Translations under genes and position numbers: made by a program
Origin: a virus
Taxonomy: Duplodnaviria; Caudoviricetes
Strand: one strand, 5' to 3'
Length of the DNA stretch: 64,000 nt
Virus record (IMG/VR): IMGVR_UViG_3300013426_000019
Coordinates: 1 to 64,000 of that record
Notes under the pieces: generated by a model
Databases searched by the model: none
What the model was told of the DNA's origin: nothing
The model's input: only the letters and a program-made list of their open reading frames with translations
In this document: positions 10,500 through 58,762 of the stretch, one piece after another
Layout of the letters: each line of letters starts with the position of its first letter
How positions within the stretch are numbered: the first letter of the stretch is position 1

Positions 10500-10503
10500 G
10501 CAT

Positions 10504-10992
10504 ATGGAAAAGAATGACTTCACTCAGCGAACAGCTCTGATAAACGATATACAAAAGCAGATAGGAAAGGAAAAAATAGAAATTGAAAGACAAAGAGATA
10601 TGGCTACATCTTTGGTTAATGATGTGATTAACTTGACATCTAAAAGGGATGTCCTGTACTCTAAATATCTAAACTTCATCAATGAATTATCCTTTGATGT
10701 ACCTACTGTATCATCTGATCTGTTCCCTGGTATTAAACCTACTCTAAATAATGTAGACTTAAACGACTTGCAGAAAAAAGCTGATACTATGAAACAGTAT
10801 GCTCAGGATATTGGCTCCCTTAATCATAGATACGACTTTGCGAAGTCCTCTTGTGTTAAGACCCTTAAATCCCTATTGTCTACTGTGCTTAATGTAATAA
10901 GTCAAGAAGATCAGATACAGGATCTTAGTACAACTTTGTTGTATGACTTAGACAGTCCTTATGATATTGGTCAATTAGCTAAAAATAGTTAA
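10504..10992 (+). CDS. Hypothetical coiled-coil protein
   Basis: ORF preceded by the ACTAATTAA motif. Confidence 0.6.
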   Translation: MEKNDFTQRTALINDIQKQIGKEKIEIERQRDMATSLVNDVINLTSKRDVLYSKYLNFINELSFDVPTVSSDLFPGIKPTLNNVDLNDLQKKADTMKQYAQDIGSLNHRYDFAKSSCVKTLKSLLSTVLNVISQEDQIQDLSTTLLYDLDSPYDIGQLAKNS

Positions 10993-10999
10993 AGTAAGA

Positions 11000-11019
11000 A
11001 GCTACCCGGAAAGGTAGCT
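11000..11019. terminator. Terminator hairpin
   Basis: AGCTACC-CGGAAA-GGTAGCT between convergent genes. Confidence 0.6.
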
Positions 11020-11975
11020 TATATTATTGTGTGCCTGAATTGCTCCAAATAATGGGCACCATAGGTATCCGCAATGTATTGTAAGTATTGACTATAATCT
11101 GTCACTATTATGACCTTATTATATAACATGCAATTATACTTATCTTGCCACGATAACTTAGTATAAGGATCTAGGGGTTTACCTTCGTCATTAAAGAACA
11201 TAGGGCCCTTAATCTCTACTAACTCACCCTCTACTCTGAAATCAGGATAATAGTAATGTATCTTGCCTAAACCATCTACGTACTCTAACTTCTCAGTATG
11301 ATAAGTGAAGTCTATATTGTGATCCTTAAGCCAGATGTAATATGCCAACTCGGGCTTAGAATCAAACTTAATACCCCTATAGTAGTATCGCTGTGACTTC
11401 TTGACTTGAAACTCTCGGACTTGGGAAGGATTACTTACACCATATCTCTTAAGCATAGTTCGATGAGTCTTATCTATCATCTCCTTGCCCTTAAGAGCTC
11501 TTATATCCCTGTTGATCTTCTTAACCTTCTCAGTTTGGAATGGTATCTTAGCCCCATAGTTCTTAAGACAAGTCTTCTCCTTCTTCTCTTGTACCCACTT
11601 AAGCTGAGAAGGATTGTTCACACCATACTTCTCTAAACACTTACGTCTCTTAAACTCATTCTGACACTCAACACTACAACAAGTATCTCTGTAATATCTA
11701 CCACCATTAGTCTCGAACTTACAATTACTACCGCATATTGGGCATCTGGGAGGCTCGCTTAAATTACTAGCAACACAATATAGGAACTCCTGAATAGTTG
11801 GGAAGGTATTCGAGTACTCCTTAAGATCAGGGTACTTCTTAAATGTGTCCTCTAATAATGTACCCCAGATATGTGGTCTTAATACAACTTTATATGGATT
11901 GCTTGCTTTTGGGTGGTGTGTGAATACTCTACCATCTACTAGGATATCCATAATCTCTTTAAGAGTTCTTTGCAT
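11019..11975 (-). CDS. Free-standing homing endonuclease (Zn finger, KYGVxNxSQ repeats, PD-(D/E)xK domain)
   Basis: CPICG, KYGVNNPSQ repeats, FDSKPE...YYPDF...VEIKG. Confidence 0.75.
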   Translation of the reverse strand: MQRTLKEIMDILVDGRVFTHHPKASNPYKVVLRPHIWGTLLEDTFKKYPDLKEYSNTFPTIQEFLYCVASNLSEPPRCPICGSNCKFETNGGRYYRDTCCSVECQNEFKRRKCLEKYGVNNPSQLKWVQEKKEKTCLKNYGAKIPFQTEKVKKINRDIRALKGKEMIDKTHRTMLKRYGVSNPSQVREFQVKKSQRYYYRGIKFDSKPELAYYIWLKDHNIDFTYHTEKLEYVDGLGKIHYYYPDFRVEGELVEIKGPMFFNDEGKPLDPYTKLSWQDKYNCMLYNKVIIVTDYSQYLQYIADTYGAHYLEQFRHTII

Positions 11976-12933
11976 CTCTATCCTTTAAATATTGAGCTAT
12001 CTTGTCTTTTAAAGGATCCTCTTCTCCTTTATTCTCCCAATATACTCTTCTCTCTACAAAATATCTGTCTTCTAATTCATTAGATAACTCTACATTAAAT
12101 GGATCAGGATCTTCATACTTGCAAGTCTTCCACTCTACCCCGAAGTTCTTAGGGTCTCTTCCTCCTTTGTAATAGTCACCCTTATTTAAATCAGAGACTT
12201 CGCAATCTATAACTAATGGCACCCAGTTGTTCTGCAATTCAGGAATAATTCTCTCGAATAAATGCTTAGCATGTGAGAGGACAGGTTTGATCTCGTCCTT
12301 CGCAATAAAATAGTCTACGCTATCATGAATCTCTCCCCACGTCCACGATTTATAACCCTTCTCTCTCATCCACGTTTGCATCTCATATTGTGCTCGACCT
12401 CTTATACAAGCTTCCATGTTCTGAGCTGCATGATTTGCACTAATGTTCTCTAAGTTCCTGAGCATGCCGGAGCTAACCTGATTGTCGTATTCTCCTCTCA
12501 AAAAGAGTTCTATTAAGTTACGTACTTTGCCAAATTCGGTCCTTACATAACCATTATTAGCTGCTACTTCCTTCTCCCTAACTATCCTGCCCCACAGACC
12601 TGGATAACCTTTAAAAAAGTTCTCCCTCAAAGACATACAAACTGCTATATTTTTGAGTTTGGCTTCACACTCTCCTTTATAAGACTTTCTGGCTTGCTCT
12701 AAAAATCTCTCCGCATGATTGGTCTCTATGTACTCATCGCATTGATCTTCATCCCAGAATGATTCAAGTGCGTTATCTGATAGAATCTTTGCTGAACCCC
12801 CAAAGATTAGCAAAAAATTTTCAGACTTCGCTAGCTGACGCATCTCTGAATAAGGCTGAATAGTCTTTTGTTTTCTAAACTCTTCTTCTGTTATCTCTCT
12901 ATATTCTGTTGTCTTTGTAATCTTGCAGCTCAT
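11959..12933 (-). CDS. polA: DNA polymerase family A, fragment 3 (motifs B and C)
   Basis: RQLAKSENF (motif B), GYVRTEFGKVR, NHAAQN, EIHDS (motif C); has its own TTATATTATATA promoter. Confidence 0.88.
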   Translation of the reverse strand: MSCKITKTTEYREITEEEFRKQKTIQPYSEMRQLAKSENFLLIFGGSAKILSDNALESFWDEDQCDEYIETNHAERFLEQARKSYKGECEAKLKNIAVCMSLRENFFKGYPGLWGRIVREKEVAANNGYVRTEFGKVRNLIELFLRGEYDNQVSSGMLRNLENISANHAAQNMEACIRGRAQYEMQTWMREKGYKSWTWGEIHDSVDYFIAKDEIKPVLSHAKHLFERIIPELQNNWVPLVIDCEVSDLNKGDYYKGGRDPKNFGVEWKTCKYEDPDPFNVELSNELEDRYFVERRVYWENKGEEDPLKDKIAQYLKDRDAKNS

Positions 12934-12971
12934 GTATATAATATAAAAAATATTAATGAGAATCTACCTCT

Positions 12972-13007
12972 GTGAACAACCTTTAGCTAAAGCAGAAGAG
13001 TTTCTTG
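12972..13007 (-). mobile_element. 36-bp IS200/IS605 left-end/right-end hybrid mini-element
   Basis: Minus strand reads TTGAG|CAAGAAACTCTTCTGCTTTAGCTAAAGGTTGTTCAC. The 5' half matches the IS left end and the 3' half matches the right end. Confidence 0.8.
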
Positions 13008-13092
13008 CTCAAATCTTTTTAAAAATAGCCACCTTTTGGATGGCTATTAATTTTTAATTTTGAAAATAAAGGATTTTTCACCGTCTTGAGAA

Positions 13093-13566
13093 TTATCTTA
13101 CGAAGTCCTCAATCTTTTTCCAAATAATACCGTAGTTAGAGTCGCCATCTGGTTCGGAGTTTATTACAATATTATATGCTTCTTTTGCGGCTTCTTCTGG
13201 TGTTGGGTAGTCCTCTTTATCTAATTCAAGGCCTTCAGTAATATCATCTTCAAGATACCAATAATCGTCTCCATCATCAACTTGAGATTTTAATTCTTTA
13301 ATCCAGCTAGCAATGGCTTTTTCAGGTGATTTTACTTTAGAGAAAAAGCAGTCTTCATCGTTCCACCAAAACATTACGTAAGTTCCAATAGGAGCTGTTA
13401 TTCGAGCTCTGCATTCATATCCAGATATGTCTGACCTTTCTGTAGAAAATATAGGATCTTCATAATCCTCGTGATCAAACCCAGCATAGACTGTCATCTT
13501 AGATGAACTGGCTTCTCTAAGAGATTCTCTACTTCTTAGCAGATTGTGTTCTTTCCATCTTTTCAT
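13093..13566 (-). CDS. Acidic hypothetical protein, possible internal head protein
   Basis: ACTAATTAA motif upstream (13603-13611); N-terminal SLREA; terminator hairpin at 13024-13047. Confidence 0.6.
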   Translation of the reverse strand: MKRWKEHNLLRSRESLREASSSKMTVYAGFDHEDYEDPIFSTERSDISGYECRARITAPIGTYVMFWWNDEDCFFSKVKSPEKAIASWIKELKSQVDDGDDYWYLEDDITEGLELDKEDYPTPEEAAKEAYNIVINSEPDGDSNYGIIWKKIEDFVR

Positions 13567-13771
13567 ACACTATTATTTCCTTTTATAAAGAATTTCTTTT
13601 GATTAATTAGTATTGTTTTTTTTTTGATTGATCCCCGAAAATTAGCTATATTTCTCTATATGACCATTTAGAAAAAGATTCTTCAAAATTCTTAGGATAA
13701 TCTTCATAATCCTCTTTTAAAAAGGTTTTAACTTCAGATAATTCTTCACTCATAATTAATTCTTTCCACTA

Positions 13772-14020
13772 CTAAGACCTTAACAATAGAGAGTAGGACC
13801 ACCCATAAGGATCTGTTGGATAATGTGTTCCCTTAGGATTAGCATTAGGAATAACTTCTGGTTGAGGATAGCTTTTTACTGCTTCAATTTGCTTTATTCC
13901 TGCGTAGTTTGAATTTATCATTAAGATAATTTCTTCCAATTGAGAAAAAGTCAACTTAGATAAATCTTCATCTTTTCCAATAATAATCTTTATTACTTTA
14001 AGCGCTTCTGTGGGCGTCAT
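13772..14020 (-). CDS. Small hypothetical (early) protein
   Basis: AGGAG RBS; in the operon downstream of a sigma70 promoter. Confidence 0.6.
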   Translation of the reverse strand: MTPTEALKVIKIIIGKDEDLSKLTFSQLEEIILMINSNYAGIKQIEAVKSYPQPEVIPNANPKGTHYPTDPYGWSYSLLLRS

Positions 14021-14051
14021 TTTGATTCTCCTTGTACTGGGTTTTTATGAA

Positions 14052-14078
14052 CTTCAGTCTTAGCTGAAGGTGGTTCAC
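14052..14078 (+). mobile_element. Orphan IS605-like right-end hairpin
   Basis: CTTCAG-TCTTAG-CTGAAG followed by GTGGTTCAC, similar to the other right ends. Confidence 0.5.
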
Positions 14079-14267
14079 TCAAAATAATTCTCGGAGTTCC
14101 TGGAGAAGCTCCGTAGAATCATCTATTGAATGTATAGCTTCTAGAATATCTTGTCTTAATCCTCTATAATTTTTCTTATCGAACATATCTTTGCTGACAT
14201 TAAAAAGAATATTTGAGGCTTCAGTCATGTGGGAAATTGCTACATTGAGTTGTTCCTTATAATTCAT
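14079..14267 (-). CDS. Small hypothetical (early) protein
   Basis: GAGGAG RBS and a consensus promoter upstream. Confidence 0.65.
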   Translation of the reverse strand: MNYKEQLNVAISHMTEASNILFNVSKDMFDKKNYRGLRQDILEAIHSIDDSTELLQELRELF

Positions 14268-14292
14268 AAAAATTTTCTCCTCTTATAATTAT

Positions 14293-14321
14293 ATTATAAT
14301 ATAAGGGAAAAATTATGTCAA
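14293..14321 (-). promoter_or_regulatory. Consensus sigma70 promoter
   Basis: TTGACA-N17-TATAAT on the minus strand. Confidence 0.85.
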
Positions 14322-14484
14322 TAGATCTTCCGAAAAAGAATTTCCTCAGCACTTTAAAAAGATTTGAGCGAGAAATCCTTCTGCTTCAGCTAAGGGATGA
14401 ATCGCTCTGAATAGCCCCTCCCCTAATATAAAGGTTACTTAAATATTTTTATAACCTTTTGAGGAAGTTCCACTAAATACATAG

Positions 14485-14922
14485 ATGACAAAAGATCAAA
14501 AGAAATTAGGCTTAGATAGTAATTGCAATGCAGTTTTCTCTTTAAATTATCACATAATTATCTGTGTTAAATATCGAAAAAAAGCTTTTGAGAGTGAAGA
14601 GATCTCTGAAAGGTGCAAAGACCTAATAAGAGAATCCTCAAAGGAAATGAAAGTGGATATTTTAGGCATAGATTGTGGAAGCGATCACATCCATATCTTG
14701 TGTAGAACAAAACCCACTCTCGATATTCCTAAATATATGAATCTTATTAAGGGATACTCTTCAAGAGTTCTTAGAAAAGAGTTTCCTGAATTAAAGAAGA
14801 TTCTCTGGGGTGATGCGTTTTGGTCTCCTAGTTACTATATTGCAAGCGCAGGTAATGTAAGCTTAGATACTTTAAAGAAATACGTTGAGTCCCAAAGAGA
14901 AAAAGAGGAAATAGAAGAGTGA
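14485..14922 (+). CDS. tnpA: IS200-type Y1 HUH transposase
   Basis: YHIIICVKYR, DHIHIL (HUH), KGYSSR, FWSPSYY, YVESQ. Confidence 0.95.
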   Translation: MTKDQKKLGLDSNCNAVFSLNYHIIICVKYRKKAFESEEISERCKDLIRESSKEMKVDILGIDCGSDHIHILCRTKPTLDIPKYMNLIKGYSSRVLRKEFPELKKILWGDAFWSPSYYIASAGNVSLDTLKKYVESQREKEEIEE

Positions 14923-16127
14923 GTTTTTACACCTACAAGTTTAGAGCATATCCTACTCCCGAACAAGCTCAGAAAATTAATCAGACAATAGGTTGTGCTA
15001 GAAAAGTGTATAATCTCTTGCTTGATGACTGTCAGAAGCAGTATAAGGAGAGTGGAAAATTTTCTGTAATGAATGTAGGTGAATTAAAGAAAAAAGAAGA
15101 TCTACAATATCTCAAAGAAGTAGATTCATTAGCGCTATGTAATTCCTATATGCATCTTAAAACAGCTTATACTTCTTTTTTCAGAAATATTAAAAAAGGA
15201 AAAGTTACTCCTCCTAAATTTAAAACTAAAAGAGATTCAAAACAATCTTATTGTACTAATAATATTAACAATTCAATTAGAATTGAACATGAAGGCCTAA
15301 GACTCCCAAAACTCGGGCCCGTAAAATGTAAATTTCACAGATTTGTAGAAGGAACTATAAAATCTGTAACAGTTAAAAGAACAAAAACAGGAAAATATTT
15401 CGTCTCTATTCTAGCGGATAGAGAAGATAAAATAATAGAAAGAGAATGTGATACCAACTATGAAAATAGCGTTCTCGGAATAGATATGAGTATTCCGAAT
15501 TTTGCAGTATACAGTGATAATACGAAACCCAAGATTATGCATTATCTAAGAAATTCGGAAGAAAAGCTAGCTCGGGCGCAGAAAGATCTTAATAGGAAGC
15601 AAAAAGACTCTAAAAACTGGGAAAAGCAAAGATTAAAAGTAGCTCGAATCTACGAAAAAATAGCTAATCAGAGAAAGAATTTCATTGAAACAGAATCAGC
15701 TAGAATTGCTAAAGAGTTCGAAGCAGTAGTAGTTGAAGACATAGATCTTAGAGCAATGTCTAAATGTTTACATTTTGGAAAATCTATCTCTGATAATGGA
15801 TTTGGTTATTTCAGAGCCAGACTAGAATCTAAATTAAAAGCTCAACTCAAGGACTTTGTTAAAGCTGACAGATGGTATCCTTCTTCTAAGGCCTGCCATG
15901 TGTGTGGTCACGTGAATAAAGATCTTAAACTCTCTGATAGGGAGTGGGATTGTCCTTCATGTGGAACTCATCTTGACAGGGATTTTAACGCTACTATTAA
16001 TTTAAAAAATTATTATATTCGTATGCAACGTACGAATCTTGTGGAGACAGGCACTGTGGATGACAAGCTTAACAGCCCTAAAAAGCATCCTGCCGATGAA
16101 GCAAGAAAAATTGTGAGCAGGGGGTAA
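14919..16127 (+). CDS. tnpB: RNA-guided endonuclease TnpB
   Basis: HTH start YKFRAYPT; RuvC GID / VED / DRDFNA; Zn finger CHVC...CPSC. Confidence 0.95.
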   Translation: MSFYTYKFRAYPTPEQAQKINQTIGCARKVYNLLLDDCQKQYKESGKFSVMNVGELKKKEDLQYLKEVDSLALCNSYMHLKTAYTSFFRNIKKGKVTPPKFKTKRDSKQSYCTNNINNSIRIEHEGLRLPKLGPVKCKFHRFVEGTIKSVTVKRTKTGKYFVSILADREDKIIERECDTNYENSVLGIDMSIPNFAVYSDNTKPKIMHYLRNSEEKLARAQKDLNRKQKDSKNWEKQRLKVARIYEKIANQRKNFIETESARIAKEFEAVVVEDIDLRAMSKCLHFGKSISDNGFGYFRARLESKLKAQLKDFVKADRWYPSSKACHVCGHVNKDLKLSDREWDCPSCGTHLDRDFNATINLKNYYIRMQRTNLVETGTVDDKLNSPKKHPADEARKIVSRG

Positions 16128-16180
16128 AATCCTAAATCACAAGCCTTTTGCTTTAGCTAAAGGTAGTTGACAAAATAAGC

Positions 16181-17458
16181 TCACTTAAAATACTCATCAC
16201 TTAGAGTGTCCTCTTCCGCTAATTCCTCTGCCAGGATAGATCCTCTGTTCTTAGTAAATATAACCTCTCCACCTAAGAAATCTACTGCTTTTCCATCTTG
16301 TTCTACATGAACATTTGTCACATTAAATTTTCTTCCTTTAGCTAAAGTAGCCCAACCTGTGGCTGAGTGAATATCTGCGTTTGGTCTTCTAAGTACCTCT
16401 CTAAGATAATCTTCTTGACGAGAATCGATAGATGCCAATCTCAACTGCAAACTACTATAATCTATAGTTACCATATAATACTCATCATTATTGGGAGTAA
16501 TAATACACTTCTTAACTTTAGTAGCCCAGTCAGAATGAGAAGGTACCTGCTGCATATTAGGATTTGTGCATTTTGATCTTCCTGAATCTGCAAACATAGG
16601 TCTATAATTAGGGTGCATTCTCCACGAATTATCTTCAGGGTGATAGACTAAACACTTAGACCATCCTTTATCTCCCTCCTCGTCATTATCGCCTAAAAAC
16701 TCTGCGATTACTGAATTAGAAGTTTTATCCCCAATAAAAGTATTTAAGAGGGTTTGTACAGATTTCATTTCCGTTATAATCTTAGCTTCTTTATGATCTT
16801 TTTTCCAACGAGTTAATTGAAAATCTCCTACTAGATAATCTCCTGCTTTTGATCTTCCTAAATCTTCCCAACCTTTACTCTCTAATAATTTACCTAATTT
16901 AGGATTAGAAGTCCATTCAAAATCTTCAGACACCCCAAAACTTTCAGCCAACTGTTTTCTCAGATCTTTTAGGTAATTATGCATCTCATCTCTTAAAGCG
17001 TCGATAGCATTCTTGTCTACGTAAACTCCTTTGTATTCTATTCTAGCGTACATATTCTCGGCAGGAATACGTCGTTCATAATAATAATCTACAATTCCCT
17101 TGGAAGATAATTCATTCGGATATTTTTTATCTAATTCCTTTGCACAATTCATTAGATTTGTATATATCCTTCTTGTTACTATAGCATCCATTACGGCATA
17201 GTCCCAAAGTATTTCTTCAGGAATATCATCAATATAACTAATGTTTTTACCCTTACCTAATTTAGCTTTGATGTTGTCTAAAGGTCTTTCATATCCACCA
17301 TATTCACTGTATAGATAAGCTAAAGCTTTAAGAGAATTAGATCGAGTCTCGTCAATGCTGTGTCCCAATGCGATGATGTCTTCATCGATTTTCGCTTCAG
17401 GAATCCCCTCATCCCAGATATCTTTTGTATCTTCAACTCTCTCTATTATTTTTATCAT
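16181..17458 (-). CDS. polA: DNA polymerase family A, fragment 2 (ExoIII, thumb, motif A)
   Basis: SLKALA, YAVMDA (ExoIII), GVYVD, SGRSKCTNPNMQQVP, DYSSLQLR (motif A), DIHSAT; has its own promoter and GGAGG RBS. Confidence 0.9.
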   Translation of the reverse strand: MIKIIERVEDTKDIWDEGIPEAKIDEDIIALGHSIDETRSNSLKALAYLYSEYGGYERPLDNIKAKLGKGKNISYIDDIPEEILWDYAVMDAIVTRRIYTNLMNCAKELDKKYPNELSSKGIVDYYYERRIPAENMYARIEYKGVYVDKNAIDALRDEMHNYLKDLRKQLAESFGVSEDFEWTSNPKLGKLLESKGWEDLGRSKAGDYLVGDFQLTRWKKDHKEAKIITEMKSVQTLLNTFIGDKTSNSVIAEFLGDNDEEGDKGWSKCLVYHPEDNSWRMHPNYRPMFADSGRSKCTNPNMQQVPSHSDWATKVKKCIITPNNDEYYMVTIDYSSLQLRLASIDSRQEDYLREVLRRPNADIHSATGWATLAKGRKFNVTNVHVEQDGKAVDFLGGEVIFTKNRGSILAEELAEEDTLSDEYFK

Positions 17459-17496
17459 TTAAAGACCTCCCATATATGCAATATATATAATATAAT

Positions 17497-18660
17497 TTAA
17501 TTTCTTTTCGTGATAAGGAGGTCGGGATGATTTATGTGAAAAGATTTCTCCAATTCTTTGAAATAGGAAATATCACTTAAGACTTTCACTTTATTGGCTT
17601 CCATACATTTTGTCTTTTCTTTTAATTGCTCTTCTGCTTTTAGTAATTTTTCTTGAGATAACCCGGAAGTGAACAAAACCCTTAGGTTACCCTCTTCATC
17701 TAATAAAGCAGGATTTTTTATTTCAATTAGCTCCCCTGTATCAAGCCTTTTAAAGTCACAAAAGTAAGTATGCGAATCCTCTTTCACTTTATAATTGAGC
17801 TTAACTTGTTCTTCAAAAGGAATATTATTATCTTTTAAATAATAAAAATAGTAAATTTCCCATTTACTGTCAAATTTTTTACCTTCAACAGTCCAACAAT
17901 AGGATCTTTTTCTACTATAATCGTCAGTTTTTGAATACCAATCCACCCCATATTTCTCAGTGCATGTTGTCTTTATTTTCTCTAATACCTCTGGTGCTTT
18001 ACCGTAAGTTACGCCATAGTGGTTAAAAAAAGAATCTTTCTTTTTTTGTTTTATTTCTTCAAGCTGAGAAATATTATCCACTCCATATTTTTCTTTTGTG
18101 GTTGCTTTTCTTTTTTTCTGAATATTAATTAAAAAATTAGGATCTTCTTCAAGATGCTCGGCTCTTCTTTTTCTAATTTTCTCTCCATAATTTATATTCT
18201 TAAGAGTCTCATTTCTTTTTGAGTAAATTTTTTCATTTAATTTTTTATAAGCTTCGGAATCTTTTGGATAATTTTTATTGAAAGTATCTCTTCCTTTCTT
18301 TTTGATTTCTTCAAGTTGTTTTGCATGAGCAACGCCATATCTTTTTAAACAAGTTTCTTCGTTTTTTCTTGGGTTATTATAGTTTGCATCGCCATATTTT
18401 TTGAGCTTCGTTTGTTTGCATTTTGCAACAATCCTCCTAACAACTTCAGGATTTTTTGCAGCACAGTATTTACTTCTATCTTTTTTTAGATTAAAAGTTT
18501 TCATTACATATCTAATCCCCCCGTAGTTTATTGAGAATTTTTCTCCAAATTGCTCCGCTGTCATAAAAGAATTTAAATATTCTTCTTCCAAAGCCTCTTT
18601 TATTTTTAAACAAAGATTTTCATCTTTTTTAAGATTACTTAATGTGATTGATTTTTCCAT
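17497..18660 (-). CDS. Free-standing homing endonuclease between polA fragments 1 and 2
   Basis: KYGV repeats; FDSKWE...YFCDF...IEIK. Confidence 0.75.
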   Translation of the reverse strand: MEKSITLSNLKKDENLCLKIKEALEEEYLNSFMTAEQFGEKFSINYGGIRYVMKTFNLKKDRSKYCAAKNPEVVRRIVAKCKQTKLKKYGDANYNNPRKNEETCLKRYGVAHAKQLEEIKKKGRDTFNKNYPKDSEAYKKLNEKIYSKRNETLKNINYGEKIRKRRAEHLEEDPNFLINIQKKRKATTKEKYGVDNISQLEEIKQKKKDSFFNHYGVTYGKAPEVLEKIKTTCTEKYGVDWYSKTDDYSRKRSYCWTVEGKKFDSKWEIYYFYYLKDNNIPFEEQVKLNYKVKEDSHTYFCDFKRLDTGELIEIKNPALLDEEGNLRVLFTSGLSQEKLLKAEEQLKEKTKCMEANKVKVLSDISYFKELEKSFHINHPDLLITKRN

Positions 18661-18711
18661 ATATAATTAATATATATTAACACATTAGAGCAAATCCAAA
18701 ATTTGACCCAC

Positions 18712-19812
18712 TTATATTTTATAGGGGACTAACTGGTTCCAATTTTTTATAGTGTCAGTATCTTCTAATTTCCAAGCCTCTTTTGATATAGACATACCTG
18801 ATGCTTCAATCTTTTCATTTTCTACTTCTACAAGAGTATGATTCGGTATTTTATATCGCACACCTTCAGAATCTTCTAGTATTATATGGCCTTCTGCGCC
18901 CTTTTGCTTTAATGTGGGCCTCCAAAGATATTTAACGTCGAATTTTCCATTAGCAAGGACCTGCCTACTATTTTTTAAGATTTCCCTTAATTTTAATTTA
19001 TTATCATTTTCTTCTACAATCTTCCAAGGAATATAGAATCCCTCAGTACCATTATAACTTAATGTAATACAACCAATTCGATCTTTGAGGAAACTGAGAC
19101 CCGAGGTTTCCAAGTCCCACGCAAGGAGTTCTCCTCTCTTATCCTTGTTAGGTTCATAAAACTCTTTAATAAATTGTTCGCTTGTTTCTATTTTATGTTT
19201 TATTAATTTAGGATAACGAGGAATAGGCTTAGCCCCATTTTGAACTAAGCTACTAATCTTTATTTGTGCTAACTTTGTTTTATAGGAATCCACAGGATCT
19301 TTAAATCCTCTGGCAAAGATATCCCTGAAGCTATCTATGGGATAAATCCAGTGTCCTTTTTCTGTCGTCAAATCTTCCGAAAACCAAAAACTTGACTTAC
19401 CAAAAAATAATTGCTGGGTGTAAGCGGGGTAGATATCATCTTCAAGTATTAAAGAGTATAAAGCAGCTCCTACTGTAATAATAGGGGAGTACTTTGGTAT
19501 GTAATCGTAAAACTTAGATCTGTTATTCTTATAAAACTTAATCTTACCTTCTGCTTTAACTACCTTATCGTCGACTTTACAATTAATAGCAGATATTATT
19601 TTATATTTTCTTAAACCCAACCTAATCAAGAAAGTTTCTATGGCTTTTAAGGCAAAGTCTTCGTACATTTCATCTGTTAAAATAACAGGGACAAAATCAT
19701 ACTTAGTTGGAACGTCACTCTTATCCACTAATAATGGATTGTCATAAAGTTTTAAATCTAAGATCTGTTTCTTTGAAGATACTTTTATATTACCAAAACT
19801 AAAACCACTCAT
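18712..19812 (-). CDS. polA: DNA polymerase family A, fragment 1 (UDG-like N-domain, ExoI/ExoII)
   Basis: AWDLETSGL (ExoI), ANGKFDVKYL (ExoII); N-terminal AINC...IITVGAAL resembles a UDG-fold domain. Confidence 0.85.
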   Translation of the reverse strand: MSGFSFGNIKVSSKKQILDLKLYDNPLLVDKSDVPTKYDFVPVILTDEMYEDFALKAIETFLIRLGLRKYKIISAINCKVDDKVVKAEGKIKFYKNNRSKFYDYIPKYSPIITVGAALYSLILEDDIYPAYTQQLFFGKSSFWFSEDLTTEKGHWIYPIDSFRDIFARGFKDPVDSYKTKLAQIKISSLVQNGAKPIPRYPKLIKHKIETSEQFIKEFYEPNKDKRGELLAWDLETSGLSFLKDRIGCITLSYNGTEGFYIPWKIVEENDNKLKLREILKNSRQVLANGKFDVKYLWRPTLKQKGAEGHIILEDSEGVRYKIPNHTLVEVENEKIEASGMSISKEAWKLEDTDTIKNWNQLVPYKI

Positions 19813-19861
19813 TAAAAATAGGCTCCTCTTATATATAATATAATGTAGAGCCTTATGTTTT

Positions 19862-20263
19862 TCAAGCTGTAGGATTCGTTTTTTTGATTTGTCTTACAGG
19901 TATTTTTTTAATTTGATCTTCTGATTTTTTCTCTGACTTTTTAGTTTCTTTCTTTACAGTTACTGTCCTAGATGTTTTGCATTTTTTCTTCTTACGTTTT
20001 TTAGTGCTTGTTTTTTTCTTAGTATTTTCAATTCTAGGAATTTGAGAACCATCAAATGCGATTTTACAGAAGAAGTAGCCCTCCACATATACTTTTGGAT
20101 AAGGCCATTGCTTAGGTGTTATGTTTTTTAAATCTTCCTCTGTTTCCTTTAAAGACATAATCTCTTCTGCTATACTTGCTGCAGCAGATTTAATCTCAGA
20201 ATAAGAGAAGACTTCTCTAATGAATATTCTATTGTGAAATTTACAACTTACTTTTGATTTCAT
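19862..20263 (-). CDS. Hypothetical protein with a very basic C-terminus (start reassigned to MKSKVS)
   Basis: TTATATTATATA motif at 20283-20295 lies just upstream of the ATG at 20263; Lys-rich tail. Confidence 0.55.
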   Translation of the reverse strand: MKSKVSCKFHNRIFIREVFSYSEIKSAAASIAEEIMSLKETEEDLKNITPKQWPYPKVYVEGYFFCKIAFDGSQIPRIENTKKKTSTKKRKKKKCKTSRTVTVKKETKKSEKKSEDQIKKIPVRQIKKTNPTA

Positions 20264-20435
20264 AGCTATGATACTTATCTTTATATATAATATAAACTTA
20301 TGAATAGAAAATTTCAGTGGCTGGTAGGAAGAACTTACAAAGGTATTTTTAAAGAAGGTAGGTAAAGAGAACAAAAAGAACAACCCAAAGCGTAGTCCAT
20401 ATCTTCTCTATCTAGAATGATCTCTATGATCTTAT

Positions 20436-20545
20436 AAACTACTTTTAATTTAAAGATTTAATTATTAATTTAACTACTTTTAATTACTAGTTTCTTTAAT
20501 TTAATCTTAATTACTATTAATTCATTTATTTAATTTACTCAACTT
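20436..20545. repeat. Extremely AT-rich tract with an AACTACTTTTAATT direct repeat (candidate origin/unwinding element)
   Basis: Two copies of AACTACTTTTAATT and many TTAAT units, in the intergenic gap between the divergent polA and primase modules. Confidence 0.35.
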
Positions 20546-20668
20546 AGATTCTTCTATTGGTTTGAAGCAATATCAGCCTATCTAAATATATAATTCATAT
20601 AAGATATAAGATAGATTATATCTTTAAGTTGACTGAAGTAATATATTTAATGATCTTAAATTAATCGA

Positions 20669-21122
20669 CAGTCGGTGCCTTGGTAAGGGTTCATAGTGTT
20701 CTAACTATGCTCTTACACTCGTACCTTCTTTACTTTTCAGCGTCTTTTTTAAGACTGTGCTTAGATTATGTAAAGGCCAGTAGCTGGCGAAGCTCACCCG
20801 CAAGGTAAATAAATACCTATTGCATTTGACGGATGGAGTTGTACGCGATTACAGGGTTTTTCATTTTAACAGAATAAAGCTGTTTTTCGACTTTGCCAAA
20901 GCCTCATCTTTATTCGCCCCCATTCCCTTGGCTGGATTGGTTAACCACGCACGGCCATTTTTGCGTTCAGCCTCTCAGATAAGTTCTCTCAACTTGAGTT
21001 CCCCGTTACAGCCTTCAGCAAGTACCTTTTGGCAGGTACAACCGCCTATTTAGCTATTTCTATTGTCCAGGCTTCAAACCCCTTCATCCTCAAATAGCAT
21101 CAACCCCTCTTTTCATCGACTG
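20669..21122 (-). ncRNA. Candidate large structured non-coding RNA (~455 nt), family unknown
   Basis: GC-richer non-coding island with many stems and terminal CAGTCG/CGACTG pairing; TTATATTATATA motif near 21196-21207 points into it. Confidence 0.55.
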
Positions 21123-23789: not shown

Positions 23790-23813
23790 CTTTAGGTCAG
23801 CTTATATTATATA

Positions 23814-30098: not shown

Positions 30099-30122
30099 AG
30101 GGACAATCGCAAGATTGTCCCT
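30099..30122 (+). terminator. Terminator after the tail sheath gene
   Basis: AGGGACAATC-GCAA-GATTGTCCCT. Confidence 0.75.
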
Positions 30123-30137
30123 TATATTATATATAAT

Positions 30138-31547
30138 ATGAGCCTAGCTGAAGTATTATTGGAGCATAAGATCATCTACAAGAGTGAAGACTGTTATATG
30201 AGGGCACCTAAATATAAGGATAAGCTAAGTGCCTTATTAGAGGATCCCAATATAGCAATCTTATATAATAATTATATAGCTCAATATAGATCAGAGGGAG
30301 AGGCCTGGCATTGCCTACTTAAAGGCGACAATCCTAATAATCACTTATGTGAGGTATGCGGCAGGCCTAGTGAGTTCAATGCAACAGCCACGACAGTTGG
30401 TTATAGCAGGTTCTGCAGCAAAGAGTGCAGGAATAAGAGTAGGGACAATAATAGAGCTAAGACCTGCTTAGATAAATATGGTTATGAGTCTGCCATGCAA
30501 TCTAAGGCAATACAGGACAAGAGTAGACAAACTTGTATAAGCAGGTATGGTGTTGAGAACCCTAATCAAAGTGATAAGATCAAAGCTAAGAAAAGACAAA
30601 CCTGTATAGATAAGTACGGCGTAGAATGTAGCTTACTAAGCTCTCAAGCCCAACTCGAGTCACAGCAAACCCTTATGGTCAATTATGGTGTGAGTAATCC
30701 TCTTAAGAGTGAGGTAGTTAAGGATAAGATAAGAGCCACCAATCTTAGGAGATATGGAGTATCCAGTTATAGCCAAACTGAGGAGTATAGACGCAAGTAT
30801 ATCTCTGCCTCTAATGCGCATTATTCAACGAATAATCCCCGTCAGAGTGTCCTTGTGAGTAATCTTATTAAGGACACAAACAAAGCTCGTTATGGCGCTG
30901 AATATTACACTCAAACAGAGGAGTTCAAGGAGAGGTACAGAAATACCTGTACAGGTAAGTACGGTGTGTCAACTACGCTGCTAGTACCGGGGGTTAGGGA
31001 TAAGATAGCTACAGCTATTAAGAGTAAGTACGGTGTTGACAATGTATCCCAAAGTCCTTTTATTAAGGAGAAGAAGAGGCAGACGTGTATAAGTAGATAC
31101 GGCGTTGATAGTTACACAAAGACAGAGGAGTTTGCAAGGCAGAGATCTAAGAGATGGGTAGTTGAGGATCAAACTTATGATAGCAAGCCTGAGATCTATT
31201 ACGCTTACTATCTTAAGTACAACAATATGCCCTACGAGAGACAAGTTCCTTTAAGTTATAGAGACGCCTTGGGCTGCAATCACGTATACTTTGTAGACTT
31301 CTTAATACTAGATACTCAGGAGTTAGTGGAACTCAAAGGTAAGCACTTAATAGATGAGGATACCGGGGAACTTAAGAATCCTTATATAAGCAAGCTTACT
31401 GAAGCACAACGTCAAGCCCTTAAGGAGAGAGACGAGGCCAAGAGTAAGTGTATGAGGGATCATAAGGTTACCATAATTACGGATTATAGAGAGTATGAGG
31501 CACTCTTCAAAGAACATTACCCTAATCTTAAGATATCTTCAATCTAG
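30138..31547 (+). CDS. Free-standing homing endonuclease (KYGV repeats, PD-(D/E)xK)
   Basis: CEVCG, FCSKEC, about 10 YG repeats, YDSKPE...YFVDF...VELKG. Confidence 0.75.
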   Translation: MSLAEVLLEHKIIYKSEDCYMRAPKYKDKLSALLEDPNIAILYNNYIAQYRSEGEAWHCLLKGDNPNNHLCEVCGRPSEFNATATTVGYSRFCSKECRNKSRDNNRAKTCLDKYGYESAMQSKAIQDKSRQTCISRYGVENPNQSDKIKAKKRQTCIDKYGVECSLLSSQAQLESQQTLMVNYGVSNPLKSEVVKDKIRATNLRRYGVSSYSQTEEYRRKYISASNAHYSTNNPRQSVLVSNLIKDTNKARYGAEYYTQTEEFKERYRNTCTGKYGVSTTLLVPGVRDKIATAIKSKYGVDNVSQSPFIKEKKRQTCISRYGVDSYTKTEEFARQRSKRWVVEDQTYDSKPEIYYAYYLKYNNMPYERQVPLSYRDALGCNHVYFVDFLILDTQELVELKGKHLIDEDTGELKNPYISKLTEAQRQALKERDEAKSKCMRDHKVTIITDYREYEALFKEHYPNLKISSI

Positions 31548-48922: not shown

Positions 48923-50347
48923 TTATAATCTAAATCCATTAAGAGCCATAAACTTCTTAAGTTGTTCAGTGGAGCGTTGCCTATTACTCTCTTTAAGGTT
49001 AGCAGGTAGAGTCTGAACGCTCTTAGGATCCCAATTAACTTGGGCAACGGGGTACTCCTTAGAACATAATTCAACTACGGCGGCAACGGAGTCACTAACG
49101 TCCTTACCGTAGTAACCAATGTATGAACTATCCCAATTAGGGTCTCCTGTTAGAACCTGTGCAGCCGAAGAGTCATGATCTATCTTAACGCCTTCAGACT
49201 TAGCTCTATGTACAATATACAAACTCTTAAGATTGTTCTTCAGGAAGATGTTCTTACCTGCAACAATCTTACGGCGGTTCATTAGAGATATTAAGTTAAG
49301 ATAAGGACCTGTAGTTCTATCTACACTCAAGTTCTCAACTTCAAACTTATCCCTCTTAAGATTCTGCACAGTAACAGCACTTTGGAATCTATCGAAGCTA
49401 ACCTTTGTAATATTGATATTACCCTTACTTCTAAGGTCCCTTATAAACTCCTCAATAGCTGCTAAGTTAACTCTCTCCTTACCCGGTACAATTGCAATAG
49501 TGAAGTCTACTACATATATAAGCTCATCTGAATCTCTATCCCTTTCTACATGAGCCATAGATATAGATGTAACGTCTGTAACTTCAGATTGGTCAACACT
49601 TATACATCTTGATAAGTAAGGTAGATAGTAGTACTCATAACGACCAGCCTTATTAATGAAGAAGGTATCCTTTATTTGACTCCATATTAACTCTTTAGGA
49701 CTGGCGCTTGCGGGTGCAGATATATTAAGATATATGTTCCTGAGGTTATTATCAAACATATCTTCGATTATATTATAATCTGTAATAAGACTATCAGCAG
49801 CACCTGCAGGTATACCCCCAAAGTCCTTAAGTGACTTAATTAAGTCATCTTCAAAGTAACTTCTTAACTTACCATCAGGGCCCTTAGAAGGTACCTCAAT
49901 AATCTTAGACCTATCAGCTGTAGGATCTTGCAACATAGGATCTAGAGGATCTAGTATACGGGGAGGTTGCCCCTTACCACCTGTAAATATCTTGAAGGTA
50001 TCATGGTTCTTGAAGTCTTGCTCATATTCTTTAGGATTCCACTGCCATACAGATCCCTTAACAACATAATAATTAGGGTCCTTAGATGCTTCATACCATA
50101 TCCAACTCTCTAGCGGAGAGGTGAGGCTGTTAGGTGATGAGTCAAGGATACTTACACCATAATAGTTACCCTTCATACGTGAGTAGATACGACCCTTTGT
50201 ATCGTTGTAGATGCGGAGGATGTAGTCATCAGAGTTATGAGTGATAAGGCCATTAGCTAGAGCGAACAGACCATCGGGATTATCTACCGTTATACATTTC
50301 TGAGGTATTTTTTCTCCTACTTTTTTAATACTCTTTACTTTAGGCAT
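48923..50347 (-). CDS. terL: Terminase large subunit, C-terminal part, starting with a 38-aa IntC (start reassigned)
   Basis: MPKVKSIKK...KCITVD...LITHN|S; ILDSSP coupling motif; nuclease motifs ISVDQS, SFDRFQS, KDVSDS. Confidence 0.88.
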   Translation of the reverse strand: MPKVKSIKKVGEKIPQKCITVDNPDGLFALANGLITHNSDDYILRIYNDTKGRIYSRMKGNYYGVSILDSSPNSLTSPLESWIWYEASKDPNYYVVKGSVWQWNPKEYEQDFKNHDTFKIFTGGKGQPPRILDPLDPMLQDPTADRSKIIEVPSKGPDGKLRSYFEDDLIKSLKDFGGIPAGAADSLITDYNIIEDMFDNNLRNIYLNISAPASASPKELIWSQIKDTFFINKAGRYEYYYLPYLSRCISVDQSEVTDVTSISMAHVERDRDSDELIYVVDFTIAIVPGKERVNLAAIEEFIRDLRSKGNINITKVSFDRFQSAVTVQNLKRDKFEVENLSVDRTTGPYLNLISLMNRRKIVAGKNIFLKNNLKSLYIVHRAKSEGVKIDHDSSAAQVLTGDPNWDSSYIGYYGKDVSDSVAAVVELCSKEYPVAQVNWDPKSVQTLPANLKESNRQRSTEQLKKFMALNGFRL

Positions 50348-52406
50348 TTTTTCTCCATATATATTTTTTAGATCCTGCACCCCAAATCGTGAACAACATA
50401 CTCTCTTCGAGCTGCTTTCTCTTTTTAGGGTTTCTATTTACTTTGTGCTCAGACTTGTCCACGTAGAACTTATCAGGGCCAGTATATCCTATAAGCTTCA
50501 TTCCCAATGCTTCGTAACCCTTACCATCGAACTTATTGTAGTCACAATAGGAGAACACGGCGTCGGGATTATATTCCCTTACAAACGCCTTGAACAATTT
50601 AGATACCCCACCTACAACCTGGTTGTTACTTCCCGGACATCCTCTTATAATTTCCCAATCGTTCTCGCCCTTAAGATTTCGATTATACTTACATTTCGAG
50701 AAGGACATGAGCTGTTGCAATTCATTATTATAGTATAAGCCGTATGTTACTTCAGCATTTCTATGTCCTTGCAAGTGGTTCTTTTCATTGAAGGCCTTAG
50801 CTTCTTTATTATCTATTTTCCTTACTTCACATTTTCTAGCCCCTATTTTGGAGTAGCCACAACCCAAGGCTATTCTTATAAGGGACTCTAATTTTTCTCT
50901 CATATATTTCCACTCACACTCATAGATATGTATTAGCCTTATTCCATACTCTTCACATATCTTAGATTTTGTTTCGTGGTATTTCTTCTCTTTATTTTCA
51001 GAGCAGTGCCAGAAGTCACCATTATATTCTATTGCAACCTTTTTCTCAGGTATATACATATCAAGTTCATAGGTATAAGGTTTCAAGATATTCCTTACAT
51101 TTTCCAGAACCTCTCCTTTATACACACTCTTAATGAACTCGAGTATTTCTTTCTCTGTGTGTGATACATTACTATGGCCTATTCTATAATATTCTTTAAT
51201 TTGAGGCAAGTATTCATTAGACACAAAGCAATAGGATTTACTTTTTAAGAGGGGTAGATCTAATTTAAGCCAGCCCTGCCCATATTTTTCTATTAGAGTA
51301 GTTAATCTAGTGCAGTTGTTTTCTTTCTCAAAGATTTCAGCTTTTCTATCTATTGTTGCTTTCATCCTCTCAGCATGACCTTCTCTTTGGCTTATATTAT
51401 CTTCTACACCATATTTTTCTCTGATAGTGTTTTTAATTTTCTGCTTAACTTGTTCATTTTTAAGGGGCGACGTCGACCCATATTTTTCAAGGCAAGTCTT
51501 TTCTCTTTTTTCTTTGCTTATCTTATTAGCCAATTCTAGAGATCCATATTTTTCAATTTTAGTAGCTTTGGTTTTTTCTTGTATTTCAGCCCAATAGTTA
51601 GGATTCTCTTCTAAGTTTTGCTTCATAGTTTCAGCTACTTTCGCCTTGAACTCAGGTACATCCATTACATTGTCAACGCCATATTTATCCAGCAGAGTTT
51701 GTTTTATTTTTTCATTGGCTACTTCATAGGCATTTTCTAGAGACCCATATTTTCCAATTTTAGTAGCTTTAGATTTTTCATTTCTATTTTTCCAGAAGTC
51801 AGGGTTCTCTTCTAGTTTTTGTTTTATGGTTTCTTGTCTCTTTTCTATTGTACCAGGTATATCTGTTACCTTTTCTACACCATATTTTTCTGTAATAGTA
51901 TTTTTGAGATTATTATTCATAATAGCATAGGCATTTTTTAGAGATCCATATTTCTCTATCTTTGTCGCCTCAGCTTTCTTTTTTCTATTTTCCCAGAACT
52001 GTGAGTCTTTTTCAGCTGATTTTTTCTTGATGTTTTCTCGAGCAATCTTTAGTTGGCTGGGGTTGGTTATATTATCCCAATCTTCATCAGGATATTTTTC
52101 CCTAAGAGTATTCATCTGCTTTTGATATCTGATTTTATTTGCATTTTCTAGAGATCCATATTTCTCTATTTGAGTAGCTATTCTTTTTTTATTTTTCTCT
52201 TCCCTGAACGTCTTATATTCTTCAGGATGCTTATCCCAATACGCCTTTTGTTCTTGCGCTTTCCTTTGCTGTATAATAGATCTATTCTTTTTAAGCAATT
52301 CTTGATTTGTCTTCTTGCACTCTGAGCATATACAGAGGAGAGGATCTTTTTCGTAAGTACTCTTATTTTCTTTTCCACATACTATGCAATTATATCTATA
52401 TATCAT
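50340..52406 (-). CDS. Free-standing homing endonuclease between the terminase halves
   Basis: Many EKYG repeats; ELDMYIP..KVAIEYNGDFWH Vsr-like domain; Hef-like C-terminus (NHLQG, GGVSKL, SYCD). Confidence 0.8.
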   Translation of the reverse strand: MIYRYNCIVCGKENKSTYEKDPLLCICSECKKTNQELLKKNRSIIQQRKAQEQKAYWDKHPEEYKTFREEKNKKRIATQIEKYGSLENANKIRYQKQMNTLREKYPDEDWDNITNPSQLKIARENIKKKSAEKDSQFWENRKKKAEATKIEKYGSLKNAYAIMNNNLKNTITEKYGVEKVTDIPGTIEKRQETIKQKLEENPDFWKNRNEKSKATKIGKYGSLENAYEVANEKIKQTLLDKYGVDNVMDVPEFKAKVAETMKQNLEENPNYWAEIQEKTKATKIEKYGSLELANKISKEKREKTCLEKYGSTSPLKNEQVKQKIKNTIREKYGVEDNISQREGHAERMKATIDRKAEIFEKENNCTRLTTLIEKYGQGWLKLDLPLLKSKSYCFVSNEYLPQIKEYYRIGHSNVSHTEKEILEFIKSVYKGEVLENVRNILKPYTYELDMYIPEKKVAIEYNGDFWHCSENKEKKYHETKSKICEEYGIRLIHIYECEWKYMREKLESLIRIALGCGYSKIGARKCEVRKIDNKEAKAFNEKNHLQGHRNAEVTYGLYYNNELQQLMSFSKCKYNRNLKGENDWEIIRGCPGSNNQVVGGVSKLFKAFVREYNPDAVFSYCDYNKFDGKGYEALGMKLIGYTGPDKFYVDKSEHKVNRNPKKRKQLEESMLFTIWGAGSKKYIWRKNA

Positions 52407-52475
52407 ACTATAATTAGTATAACAACTTGCTACTAGGACTGAGTATAATAGGTGGTCTTATATTTAGAGAAGCAC

Positions 52476-53582: not shown

Positions 53583-53733
53583 GTCTATTATTAACTTAGT
53601 TACATTACACAACTAATTAAGCAGACCTACAAATAGGCCCTTCACAATTAATATAGAGGTCTTAATAACTGTTTATATTATAATTATAAGTGAACCGAAG
53701 GGAATTTACACAATATATTATAGGAGATTTCAA

Positions 53734-58648: not shown

Positions 58649-58762
58649 ATCTATATATTATATTATATATGACAATTTGTCAAGCCTTATAAGGTAGATT
58701 TTTTAATTTATTTTTTTCACTTTTAGGTTGATATTTTACTGTAAGGGGGTTATATTATATAC

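Follow-up and report, generated by a model that had tools for sequence, protein, structure and literature searches.

In a 64,000-nucleotide stretch of DNA from an uncultured phage (positions 1 to 64,000 of IMG/VR record IMGVR_UViG_3300013426_000019, termed the window), the gene for a family A DNA polymerase (PolA) is divided into three separate open reading frames (ORFs). At each of the two breaks, the upstream fragment ends in an additional C-terminal segment (tail-1 or tail-2) and the downstream fragment begins with a short additional N-terminal segment (head-1 or head-2). These tags resemble part of the Hint fold of inteins, and residues needed for protein splicing are not found in them. 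The explanation that best accounts for the findings overall, and which is considered probable, is that the enzyme is a heterotrimeric PolA held together by catalytically dead half-Hint modules. A related arrangement had been proposed in an earlier model reading of the sequence alone (the original prediction), and the outcome of its individual claims is given below where the evidence is presented.

A family A DNA polymerase in three pieces

The proteins P0001, P0002 and P0003, or fragments 1, 2 and 3 (Table 1), are parts of one family A DNA polymerase with a 3′-5′ exonuclease. They cover the phrog_17 profile consecutively, P0001 at profile positions 536-747, P0002 at 764-1043 and P0003 at 1056-1257. 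The Pfam domain DNA_pol_A (PF00476) is likewise divided, with its positions 3-193 found on P0002 (68 bits) and 239-376 on P0003 (44 bits), and DNA_pol_A_exo1 (PF01612) is split over P0001 and P0002, both half-matches being below the cut-off. Unsplit homologs of 1023-1043 amino acids align end to end with the three fragments placed in series, at 68-74% identity. PolA enzymes are characterized by the motifs Exo I-III and Pol A-C. All are present in the translations and in the alignment: Exo I and II on P0001, Exo III and motif A on P0002, and motifs B and C on P0003. Break 1 is situated in the exonuclease domain after ExoII, and break 2 in the fingers, between DIH and motif B. The original prediction, which had three ORFs encoding PolA and both breaks within folded domains at these same positions, is thus confirmed by the coordinates, the Pfam and phrog_17 matches and the alignment with unsplit homologs.

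The phage genome is ∼215 kb in length, and the virus record of 158,768 bp is 74% complete as assessed by CheckV. No other DNA polymerase family was detected in this 74% complete record. The three-piece enzyme is presumed to be active. Among cultured phage records there is no megablast match to the polymerase locus, and the best protein identity to a cultured phage is ∼25%. DNA contigs from the public runs of one study show the same three-piece layout, including the insertion sequence (IS) and the endonuclease cassette described below.

Hint-like fold of the tails and heads

Tail-1 and tail-2 are homologous by comparison of their profiles (hhalign probability 97.8%, E 9.4e-13). The relation is visible at the profile level only and not by pairwise comparison. 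As a separate matter, the idea that tail-1 arose by duplication, either of tail-2 or of the beginning of fragment 2, and then diverged was considered and rejected, with pairwise Smith-Waterman alignments and shuffles giving p values of 0.23-0.56 and BLASTP showing nothing significant. A phmmer search with tail-1 against 1.8 billion representatives returned only tail-1 itself and one spurious repeat protein, and the tail-2 profile finds no further copy in the genome.

The break 2 module can be modelled as one piece in P0008, where tail and head are contiguous (residues 657-735, alignment of 84 rows). The AlphaFold2 model has a mean predicted local distance difference test score (pLDDT) of 88.3 and a predicted template modelling score of 0.72. 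It consists of five strands in the same sheet, four contributed by the tail and one long strand by the head. In a Foldseek search of the PDB, approximately the top 33 matches to this model are all inteins or Hedgehog Hint domains, and the NrdJ-1 split intein is first; probabilities are 0.98-1.0 and TMq values 0.5-0.56, with E values of only 0.09-1. VIA-align, when run against 48,161 chains, places members of the Hint superfamily in all of the top 25 positions (Z 6.8-3.5). These alignments span intein residues ∼40-55 to 115-140, i.e. the second half of the N-terminal intein fragment (IntN) and the beginning of the C-terminal fragment (IntC). Searches of the ESM Atlas and BFVD find PT-HINT and Intein_splicing as well as proteins that typically host inteins.

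At the sequence level, the tail-2 profile, built from 95 sequences, has one PDB hit below E=1. This is to residues 85-106 of an NrdJ-1 intein fusion (22 residues, E 8.2e-4), which, given the published lengths of this intein, correspond to the end of the NrdJ-1 N-fragment. For tail-1 modelled alone (pLDDT 81), the top 11 VIA-align matches are all inteins (Z 4.8-3.0), and one of them is the Npu DnaE IntN chain, matched over residues 52-97; Foldseek was uninformative with this model. Both tags belong to one domain family by the profile comparison, and a truncated Hint fold of this family is largely supported by the structural models, the match being partial and limited to the central half of the fold. 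The assignment is made because the matches are exclusive and consistent, and not because of any single score. The Hint-like character of the tags claimed in the original prediction is in this way largely upheld by Foldseek, VIA-align and the NrdJ-1 profile match.

Absence of splicing residues

Alignments of related tails show no conserved Cys, Ser or Thr at the start of either tail, tail-1 following immediately on the ExoII helix and tail-2 beginning within the fingers. Block A is absent, as structural alignments begin at intein residue ∼40-55. The heads are 14-18 residues long and lead straight into polymerase sequence; there is no terminal His-Asn with a nucleophile at the head end, and block F/G is not present. 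The Thr-x-x-His of block B is not conserved either, the corresponding residues being Asn-Asn or Asn-His in relatives of tail-1 and Gly-Gly-Glu in tail-2. Judging from these alignments, the parts of the Hint domain that perform splicing are physically missing, and the modules are best described as Hint-derived and not as inteins. Block A with Cys1, block F and the terminal His-Asn plus nucleophile had all been listed as missing in the original prediction, and the alignments and structural coverage agree; the His that it noted in the first tail is there, but it is not conserved among related tails.

Separate expression of the fragments

A 12-nt motif, TTATATTATATA, is enriched in the DNA, with 21 matches at one mismatch or fewer vs 3.1 expected. 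It is found directly upstream of all three fragments, as had been claimed earlier. GGAGG-type ribosome sites precede fragments 1 and 2, and the ATG of fragment 3 begins 1 nt past the motif. No Rfam intron model matches positions 10500-21000 in an E-value scan. Separate expression of each piece is proposed because each has its own enriched promoter-like motif, fragments 1 and 2 have ribosome sites, and no intron model is found.

Genome-wide there are 19 exact copies of TTATATTATATA, e.g. at window positions 12935-12946, 23802-23813, 30122-30133 and 58750-58761. In 7 of the 19, an ORF starts with ATG 0-4 nt downstream and has no ribosome site, and in the remaining copies a start preceded by a Shine-Dalgarno sequence is 14-25 nt downstream. 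This spacing suggests that TTATATTATATA is a phage promoter that yields leaderless mRNAs at the seven close-spaced copies, and fragment 3 may be expressed from such an mRNA.

Break 1 and a mobile endonuclease cassette

Break 1 goes back to the recent insertion of a 1.5-kb cassette, which is still mobile and is polymorphic within one phage species. In the close relative L003, which is 91-94% identical by blastn, 8 bp are found in place of the cassette, and fragments 1 and 2 are fused as a 707-amino acid cassette-free allele (P0041) that is 97% identical to P0002. The cassette carries the last 68 residues of P0001 and the first 18 of P0002, and between them is a homing endonuclease gene of the DUF7487 family, annotated as 'homing endonuclease' by PHROG as well; the original prediction was correct in placing such a gene between fragments 1 and 2. 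No target-site duplication or long repeat flanking the cassette was found.

Alleles with and without the cassette share one protein cluster at 90% identity and are found on 14 and 16 contigs of up to 235 kb. A FastTree phylogeny was made of 109 polymerases from their shared core with the tags left out, and is unrooted. Forms split at break 1 need nine changes over 11 rows in this tree, and sister pairs at distances of 0.003-0.018 differ by the cassette alone. The patchy distribution is as expected of an active homing element. The same endonuclease family also follows fragment 1 in polymerases that are only ∼50% identical. In the alignment, unsplit polymerases lack tail-1. Conservation of this segment, which has 60-70 residues, extends to 14 split N-fragments with overall identities of 45-71%, and every occurrence of the cassette comes with a conserved tail and head.

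Break 2, an apparently older split

Break 2 appears to have a different history. An IS200/605 element, identified by TnpA (PF01797, Y1 transposase, E 5.5e-41) and by TnpB (OrfB_IS605, Cas12f-like TNB) matches to PF01385, PF07282 and PF12323, is inserted 21 bp past the stop codon of fragment 2, and is missing in relatives, including L003. IS-free relatives have the same break 2 split and contain the three small ORFs that are located in the gap. The IS element can thus be discounted as the cause of break 2, and the small ORFs do not belong to its cargo. The original prediction had an IS605 element with cargo genes separating fragments 2 and 3; the tnpA and tnpB genes are there, but the small ORFs are resident, and an origin of the break from the IS element is contradicted by close relatives without it and by the presence of the break in ∼90 clusters.

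Most homologs of P0002 (∼90 clusters, 680-740 amino acids) are fusions of fragments 1 and 2 whose C-terminus is only a few residues away from that of P0002. All four possible architectures are seen: unsplit; fragments 1 and 2 fused and 3 separate; 1 separate and 2 and 3 fused (P0026 and P0045, both on one 5.7-kb contig); and all three separate (this window and L001). Every deep branch of the tree is fused at break 1 and split at break 2. Polymerases without break 2 occupy nested positions and require seven changes or more, and the junction linker differs in each such lineage. Accordingly, break 2 appears to be ancient and the usual state of this polymerase family, by parsimony only, on an unrooted tree. 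Unsplit members carry tail-2 and head-2 as one segment of ∼70 residues between DIH and motif B. The original prediction regarded the break 2 tail and head as extra sequence; this is so with respect to canonical PolA, but members of this polymerase family have them as an ordinary, conserved part of the protein. It had also named the occurrence of the extra segments as ordinary loops of unsplit homologs as an outcome that would refute its reading. The break 2 segments are indeed found contiguous in such homologs, but the tree suggests that these genes are repeated secondary re-fusions in which the module was left as an insert with a variable linker, and the segment itself is Hint-like.

The gap at break 2 is apparently a hotspot for different inserted genes. 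In the slot after fragment 2 that is occupied here by the IS200/605 element, close relatives have an opposite-strand DUF723 gene (359 amino acids) or a 169-amino acid ORF (loci L004, 12117-13196, and L005, 3442-4521). A 244-bp deletion at window positions 13455-13700, within the region of the 157-amino acid resident ORF, is present in contigs from two samples of one study. A palindrome-containing element of ∼43-47 nt is repeated around the gap, at 12971-13023, 14353-14399 and 16145-16172, and is also found on several other contigs in the public runs, with loose ends at 12971 or 13013. It might act as a terminator or regulatory site, or be a miniature mobile element.

Assembly of the polymerase and alternative explanations

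In the mechanism proposed, the three polymerase chains would be transcribed and translated separately and would reassemble non-covalently. Each break would interrupt a small beta-domain with a truncated and catalytically dead Hint fold, at a site that corresponds to the break of natural split inteins and to the location of intein endonucleases. The head strand would complete the sheet of the tail, and the truncated Hint domain would in this manner tether neighbouring polymerase pieces, after which the native exonuclease and fingers interfaces would close.

Tail-head association at break 1 was assessed by co-folding. Tail-1 with head-1 scores 0.35 vs 0.00 for the best of three controls, which the tool grades as 'weak support'; when the tool was calibrated, the mark was reached by 58 of 80 solved complexes and by 2 of 110 mismatched pairs, and at scores of 0.60 or below by only 7 of the 80 complexes and by both mismatches. 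The three runs have at least 80% of contacts in common, and the partner pLDDT is at least 52. On this modelling, the tags may serve as a non-covalent clip.

Several observations weigh against a heterotrimer joined by half-Hint modules. Single tails match no Hint model in Pfam or NCBIfam at E values up to 10. No hhalign similarity is seen between the tails and a genuine IntN encoded by the same genome, and head-1 shows no detectable similarity to head-2 or to the break 2 module, hhalign included. Sequence support for the Hint relationship is one match of 22 residues. The structure searches give modest scores, with Z values under 7 and Foldseek E values over 0.08, and VIA-align Z values below 8 can reflect a common arrangement. 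As the tree is unrooted, an ancestral break 2 is a parsimony argument only. In the split ribonucleotide reductase of Aeromonas phage Aeh1, which has comparable tails, the tails are not needed for the halves to bind, only for higher-order assembly (PMC3045599). The native exonuclease fold and fingers interfaces may suffice for assembly of the polymerase.

The last two points lead to the alternative that survives best, in which the tags are split-intein leftovers without a role in assembly and the fragments associate by native interfaces. It would fit with the heterodimerization of tail-less Aeh1 NrdA halves (PMC3045599), with the low co-folding score and with the position of both breaks in folded domains that would be able to reassemble alone. 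However, tails and heads are conserved across polymerases that are 40-70% identical, which points to purifying selection; the module is retained after apparent re-fusion; and the head strand is integral to the sheet of the tail in the confident AlphaFold2 model. A passenger relic is therefore rated as unlikely, and this possibility, or a role of the tags in higher-order assembly, is a live rival to the clip.

A second alternative is that the tags have no relation to Hint domains, i.e. that they represent an ordinary lineage-specific beta-hairpin insert of this polymerase clade whose likeness to inteins is convergent. The contiguity of the break 2 segment in unsplit homologs would be in keeping with this, as would the lack of Pfam and NCBIfam matches and the modest Z values. 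It is nevertheless improbable. Two independent structure searches are topped by the Hint superfamily only (25 of 25 and ∼33 of ∼33), with the Atlas and BFVD in agreement, and the sole PDB sequence match below E=1 is a phage split intein, matched at the end of its IntN. In addition, the break is at the canonical position of split inteins and endonuclease insertions, the break 1 module travels with a homing endonuclease, and the same genome has a genuine split intein with the same endonuclease family.

That the pieces are covalently joined, whether through non-canonical protein trans-splicing or at the RNA level (trans-splicing, an unrecognized intron or ribosomal bypass), is highly unlikely: non-canonical class 2 and class 3 inteins do lack Cys1, and endonuclease cassettes can bring translational bypass, as at T4 gene 60 (bioRxiv 10.1101/2022.08.31.505936), but in PolA the splicing blocks are missing (the first ∼40-50 residues and the terminal His-Asn strand), neither junction has a conserved nucleophile, there is no Rfam intron match, each piece has its own promoter motif and start, and some relatives have no fragment 3 within 7 kb of fragment 2.

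The heterotrimer held by half-Hint modules can be extended to a broader picture, which is put forward tentatively and with rather less confidence. A mobile 'gene-splitting kit', composed of a homing endonuclease and a minimal split-Hint heterodimerization module (the capture half, stripped of splicing), might invade the folds of essential enzymes at no cost to the host. The two diverged copies in PolA, possibly orthogonal, would order the assembly of three chains, and the older copy would have been fixed in the polymerase family and kept past re-fusion.

Comparison with known split genes

The closest parallel is nrdA-a/mobE/nrdA-b of phage Aeh1, where tails brought by mobE are essential for the activity of the split ribonucleotide reductase (Crona et al. 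2011, PMC3045599). In both systems, an essential gene related to replication is interrupted by a free-standing homing endonuclease, its insertion adds a C-terminal tail upstream and an N-terminal tail downstream, and the layout involves neither RNA nor protein splicing. The Aeh1 authors speculated that the tails are remnants of degenerate inteins (PMC3045599). The Aeh1 tails differ in that they are short and have no database match or known fold, whereas the PolA tags form a Hint-like domain of ∼70 amino acids with a profile match to a split intein. Furthermore, the nuclease is the HNH enzyme MobE in Aeh1 and a DUF7487 protein here (P0004 has no HNH match), and the host gene encodes ribonucleotide reductase in one case and PolA in the other, the latter with two breaks in one gene.

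The MobA element of T4 topoisomerase genes 39/60 is a cassette of ∼1.1 kb that splits an ORF (Manning and Atkins, bioRxiv 10.1101/2022.08.31.505936). Like the PolA cassette, it always adds in-frame C-terminal and N-terminal extensions. The split and tails can outlast the MobA endonuclease, which may later be lost or replaced, and secondary fusions occur; this also resembles the PolA situation. In contrast, MobA has a 50-nt translational bypass element, and none is seen in the PolA cassette; nor are the MobA extensions described as Hint-like (bioRxiv 10.1101/2022.08.31.505936). PolA break 1 is thus an endonuclease-split gene with tails, of the MobE/MobA type of architecture and with a different nuclease family.

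In 'fractured genes', e.g. NrdJ-1 and gp41-1, a free-standing endonuclease separates the two halves of a split intein (Dassa et al. 2009, PMC2677866). They share with PolA the gene order, in which the host N-part with IntN comes first, then an endonuclease gene that has control elements of its own, and last IntC with the host C-part. They are likewise phage-borne, and the break is again in the region of the Hint fold where endonucleases insert. The top match of the PolA module, both by sequence and by Foldseek, is NrdJ-1. Unlike fractured genes, the PolA modules lack the N-terminal third, with block A and the nucleophile, as well as the C-terminal strands that hold block F/G, His-Asn and the +1 nucleophile. 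Because these parts are missing, the modules cannot splice and the host protein stays in pieces. Splitting of a polymerase gene is also found with the family B enzyme gp43 of T4-like phages (Aeromonas phage 25 and relatives), which is encoded by two genes, in one case with a homing endonuclease between them (cited in PMC2677866). The PolA described here belongs to family A, and Hint-like tags are not reported for gp43 in the literature cited.

A literature search for degenerate or non-splicing intein remnants as connectors yielded nothing relevant. The view in the original prediction that the arrangement is undescribed has to be qualified, since endonuclease-borne assembly tails have been published (PMC3045599; bioRxiv 10.1101/2022.08.31.505936) and a degenerate-intein origin was speculated upon, but neither paper shows the Hint relationship. 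Of note are two homologous modules that appear to be of different ages in one gene, and the occurrence of invasion, fixation and apparent re-fusion in one protein family: an active element polymorphic in one phage species is documented, together with a seemingly ancient split across ∼100 polymerase clusters with apparent repeated re-fusion. If the interpretation is correct, it would explain the source of the assembly tails in endonuclease-split genes, a question open since the work on Aeh1 MobE and T4 MobA. It would also provide a third fate of inteins besides splicing and loss, in which the association half is domesticated as a permanent non-covalent connector. Natural, tiny, cysteine-free and non-splicing split-Hint pairs might serve as orthogonal protein-assembly tags.

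Features of the locus and other mobile elements

Table 1. Positions of the polymerase fragments, their tags and associated elements (numbering of the window; the two DUF7487-type genes beyond 64,000 are in the remainder of the virus record)
Feature	Position	Strand	Remarks
PolA fragment 1 (P0001, 366 amino acids)	18712-19812	(-)	N-terminal domain, ExoI and ExoII motifs, then tail-1
PolA fragment 2 (P0002, 425 amino acids)	16181-17458	(-)	head-1, ExoIII, thumb, palm with motif A, DIH, then tail-2
PolA fragment 3 (P0003, 324 amino acids)	11959-12933	(-)	head-2, motif B, motif C, C-terminal region
Break 1 cassette, 1516 bp	17405-18920	(-)	tail-1, stop, endonuclease, promoter motif and ribosome site, head-1
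Tail-1 (P0001 residues 299-366)	18715-18918	(-)	Hint-like N-part
Free-standing homing endonuclease gene (P0004, 387 amino acids)	17497-18660	(-)	DUF7487, phrog_3339
Head-1 (P0002 residues 1-18, starts MIKII)	17405-17458	(-)	conserved in 11 middle fragments
Tail-2 (P0002 residues ∼380-425)	16184-16321	(-)	four-strand N-part of putative half-Hint module; conserved in ∼95 polymerases ending here
Head-2 (P0003 residues 1-14)	12892-12933	(-)	long closing strand of putative half-Hint module
Promoter-like motif TTATATTATATA, upstream of fragment 1	19832-19843	(-)
Promoter-like motif, upstream of fragment 2	17484-17495	(-)	within cassette
Promoter-like motif abutting fragment 3 ATG	12935-12946	(-)	possible leaderless mRNA
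IS200/605 element	14358-16159	(+)	tnpA 14485-14922, tnpB 14919-16127
Three small resident ORFs (62, 82 and 157 amino acids)	13093-14267	(-)	gap between fragments 2 and 3
Second DUF7487 homing endonuclease (P0005, 318 amino acids)	11019-11975	(-)	overlaps fragment 3 end; also in close relatives
DUF7487-type genes	11019-11975, 17497-18660, 30138-31547, 50340-52406, ∼97603-99117, ∼122240-124324

At least six putative homing endonuclease genes of the DUF7487 type are present in 159 kb. Only two are inside split genes, at PolA break 1 and in a terminase gene, and the others look free-standing; the copies at 30.1, 97.6 and 122.2 kb are associated with no visible gene split. Near the copy at 97.6 kb, and outside the window at ∼99193-101215 of the record, a serine-recombinase-like ORF (201 amino acids) is followed by a 456-amino acid ORF. 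This region adjoins the DUF7487 endonuclease and is downstream of a 475-amino acid replicative-helicase-like ORF.

The terminase case is a genuine fractured gene, found in a gene resembling that of the terminase large subunit at window positions 48923-53612 on the (-) strand. The ORF at 52476-53612 ends in an IntN-like segment of ∼100 amino acids (Pfam Hom_end_hint, E 1.7e-4), a 688-amino acid DUF7487 endonuclease ORF comes next (50340-52406), and the ORF at 48923-50380 begins with an IntC-like segment ending in His-Asn-Ser. This split intein has no Cys at position 1, a Trp after the block B His and a Cys in block F, and it is presumably of class 3.

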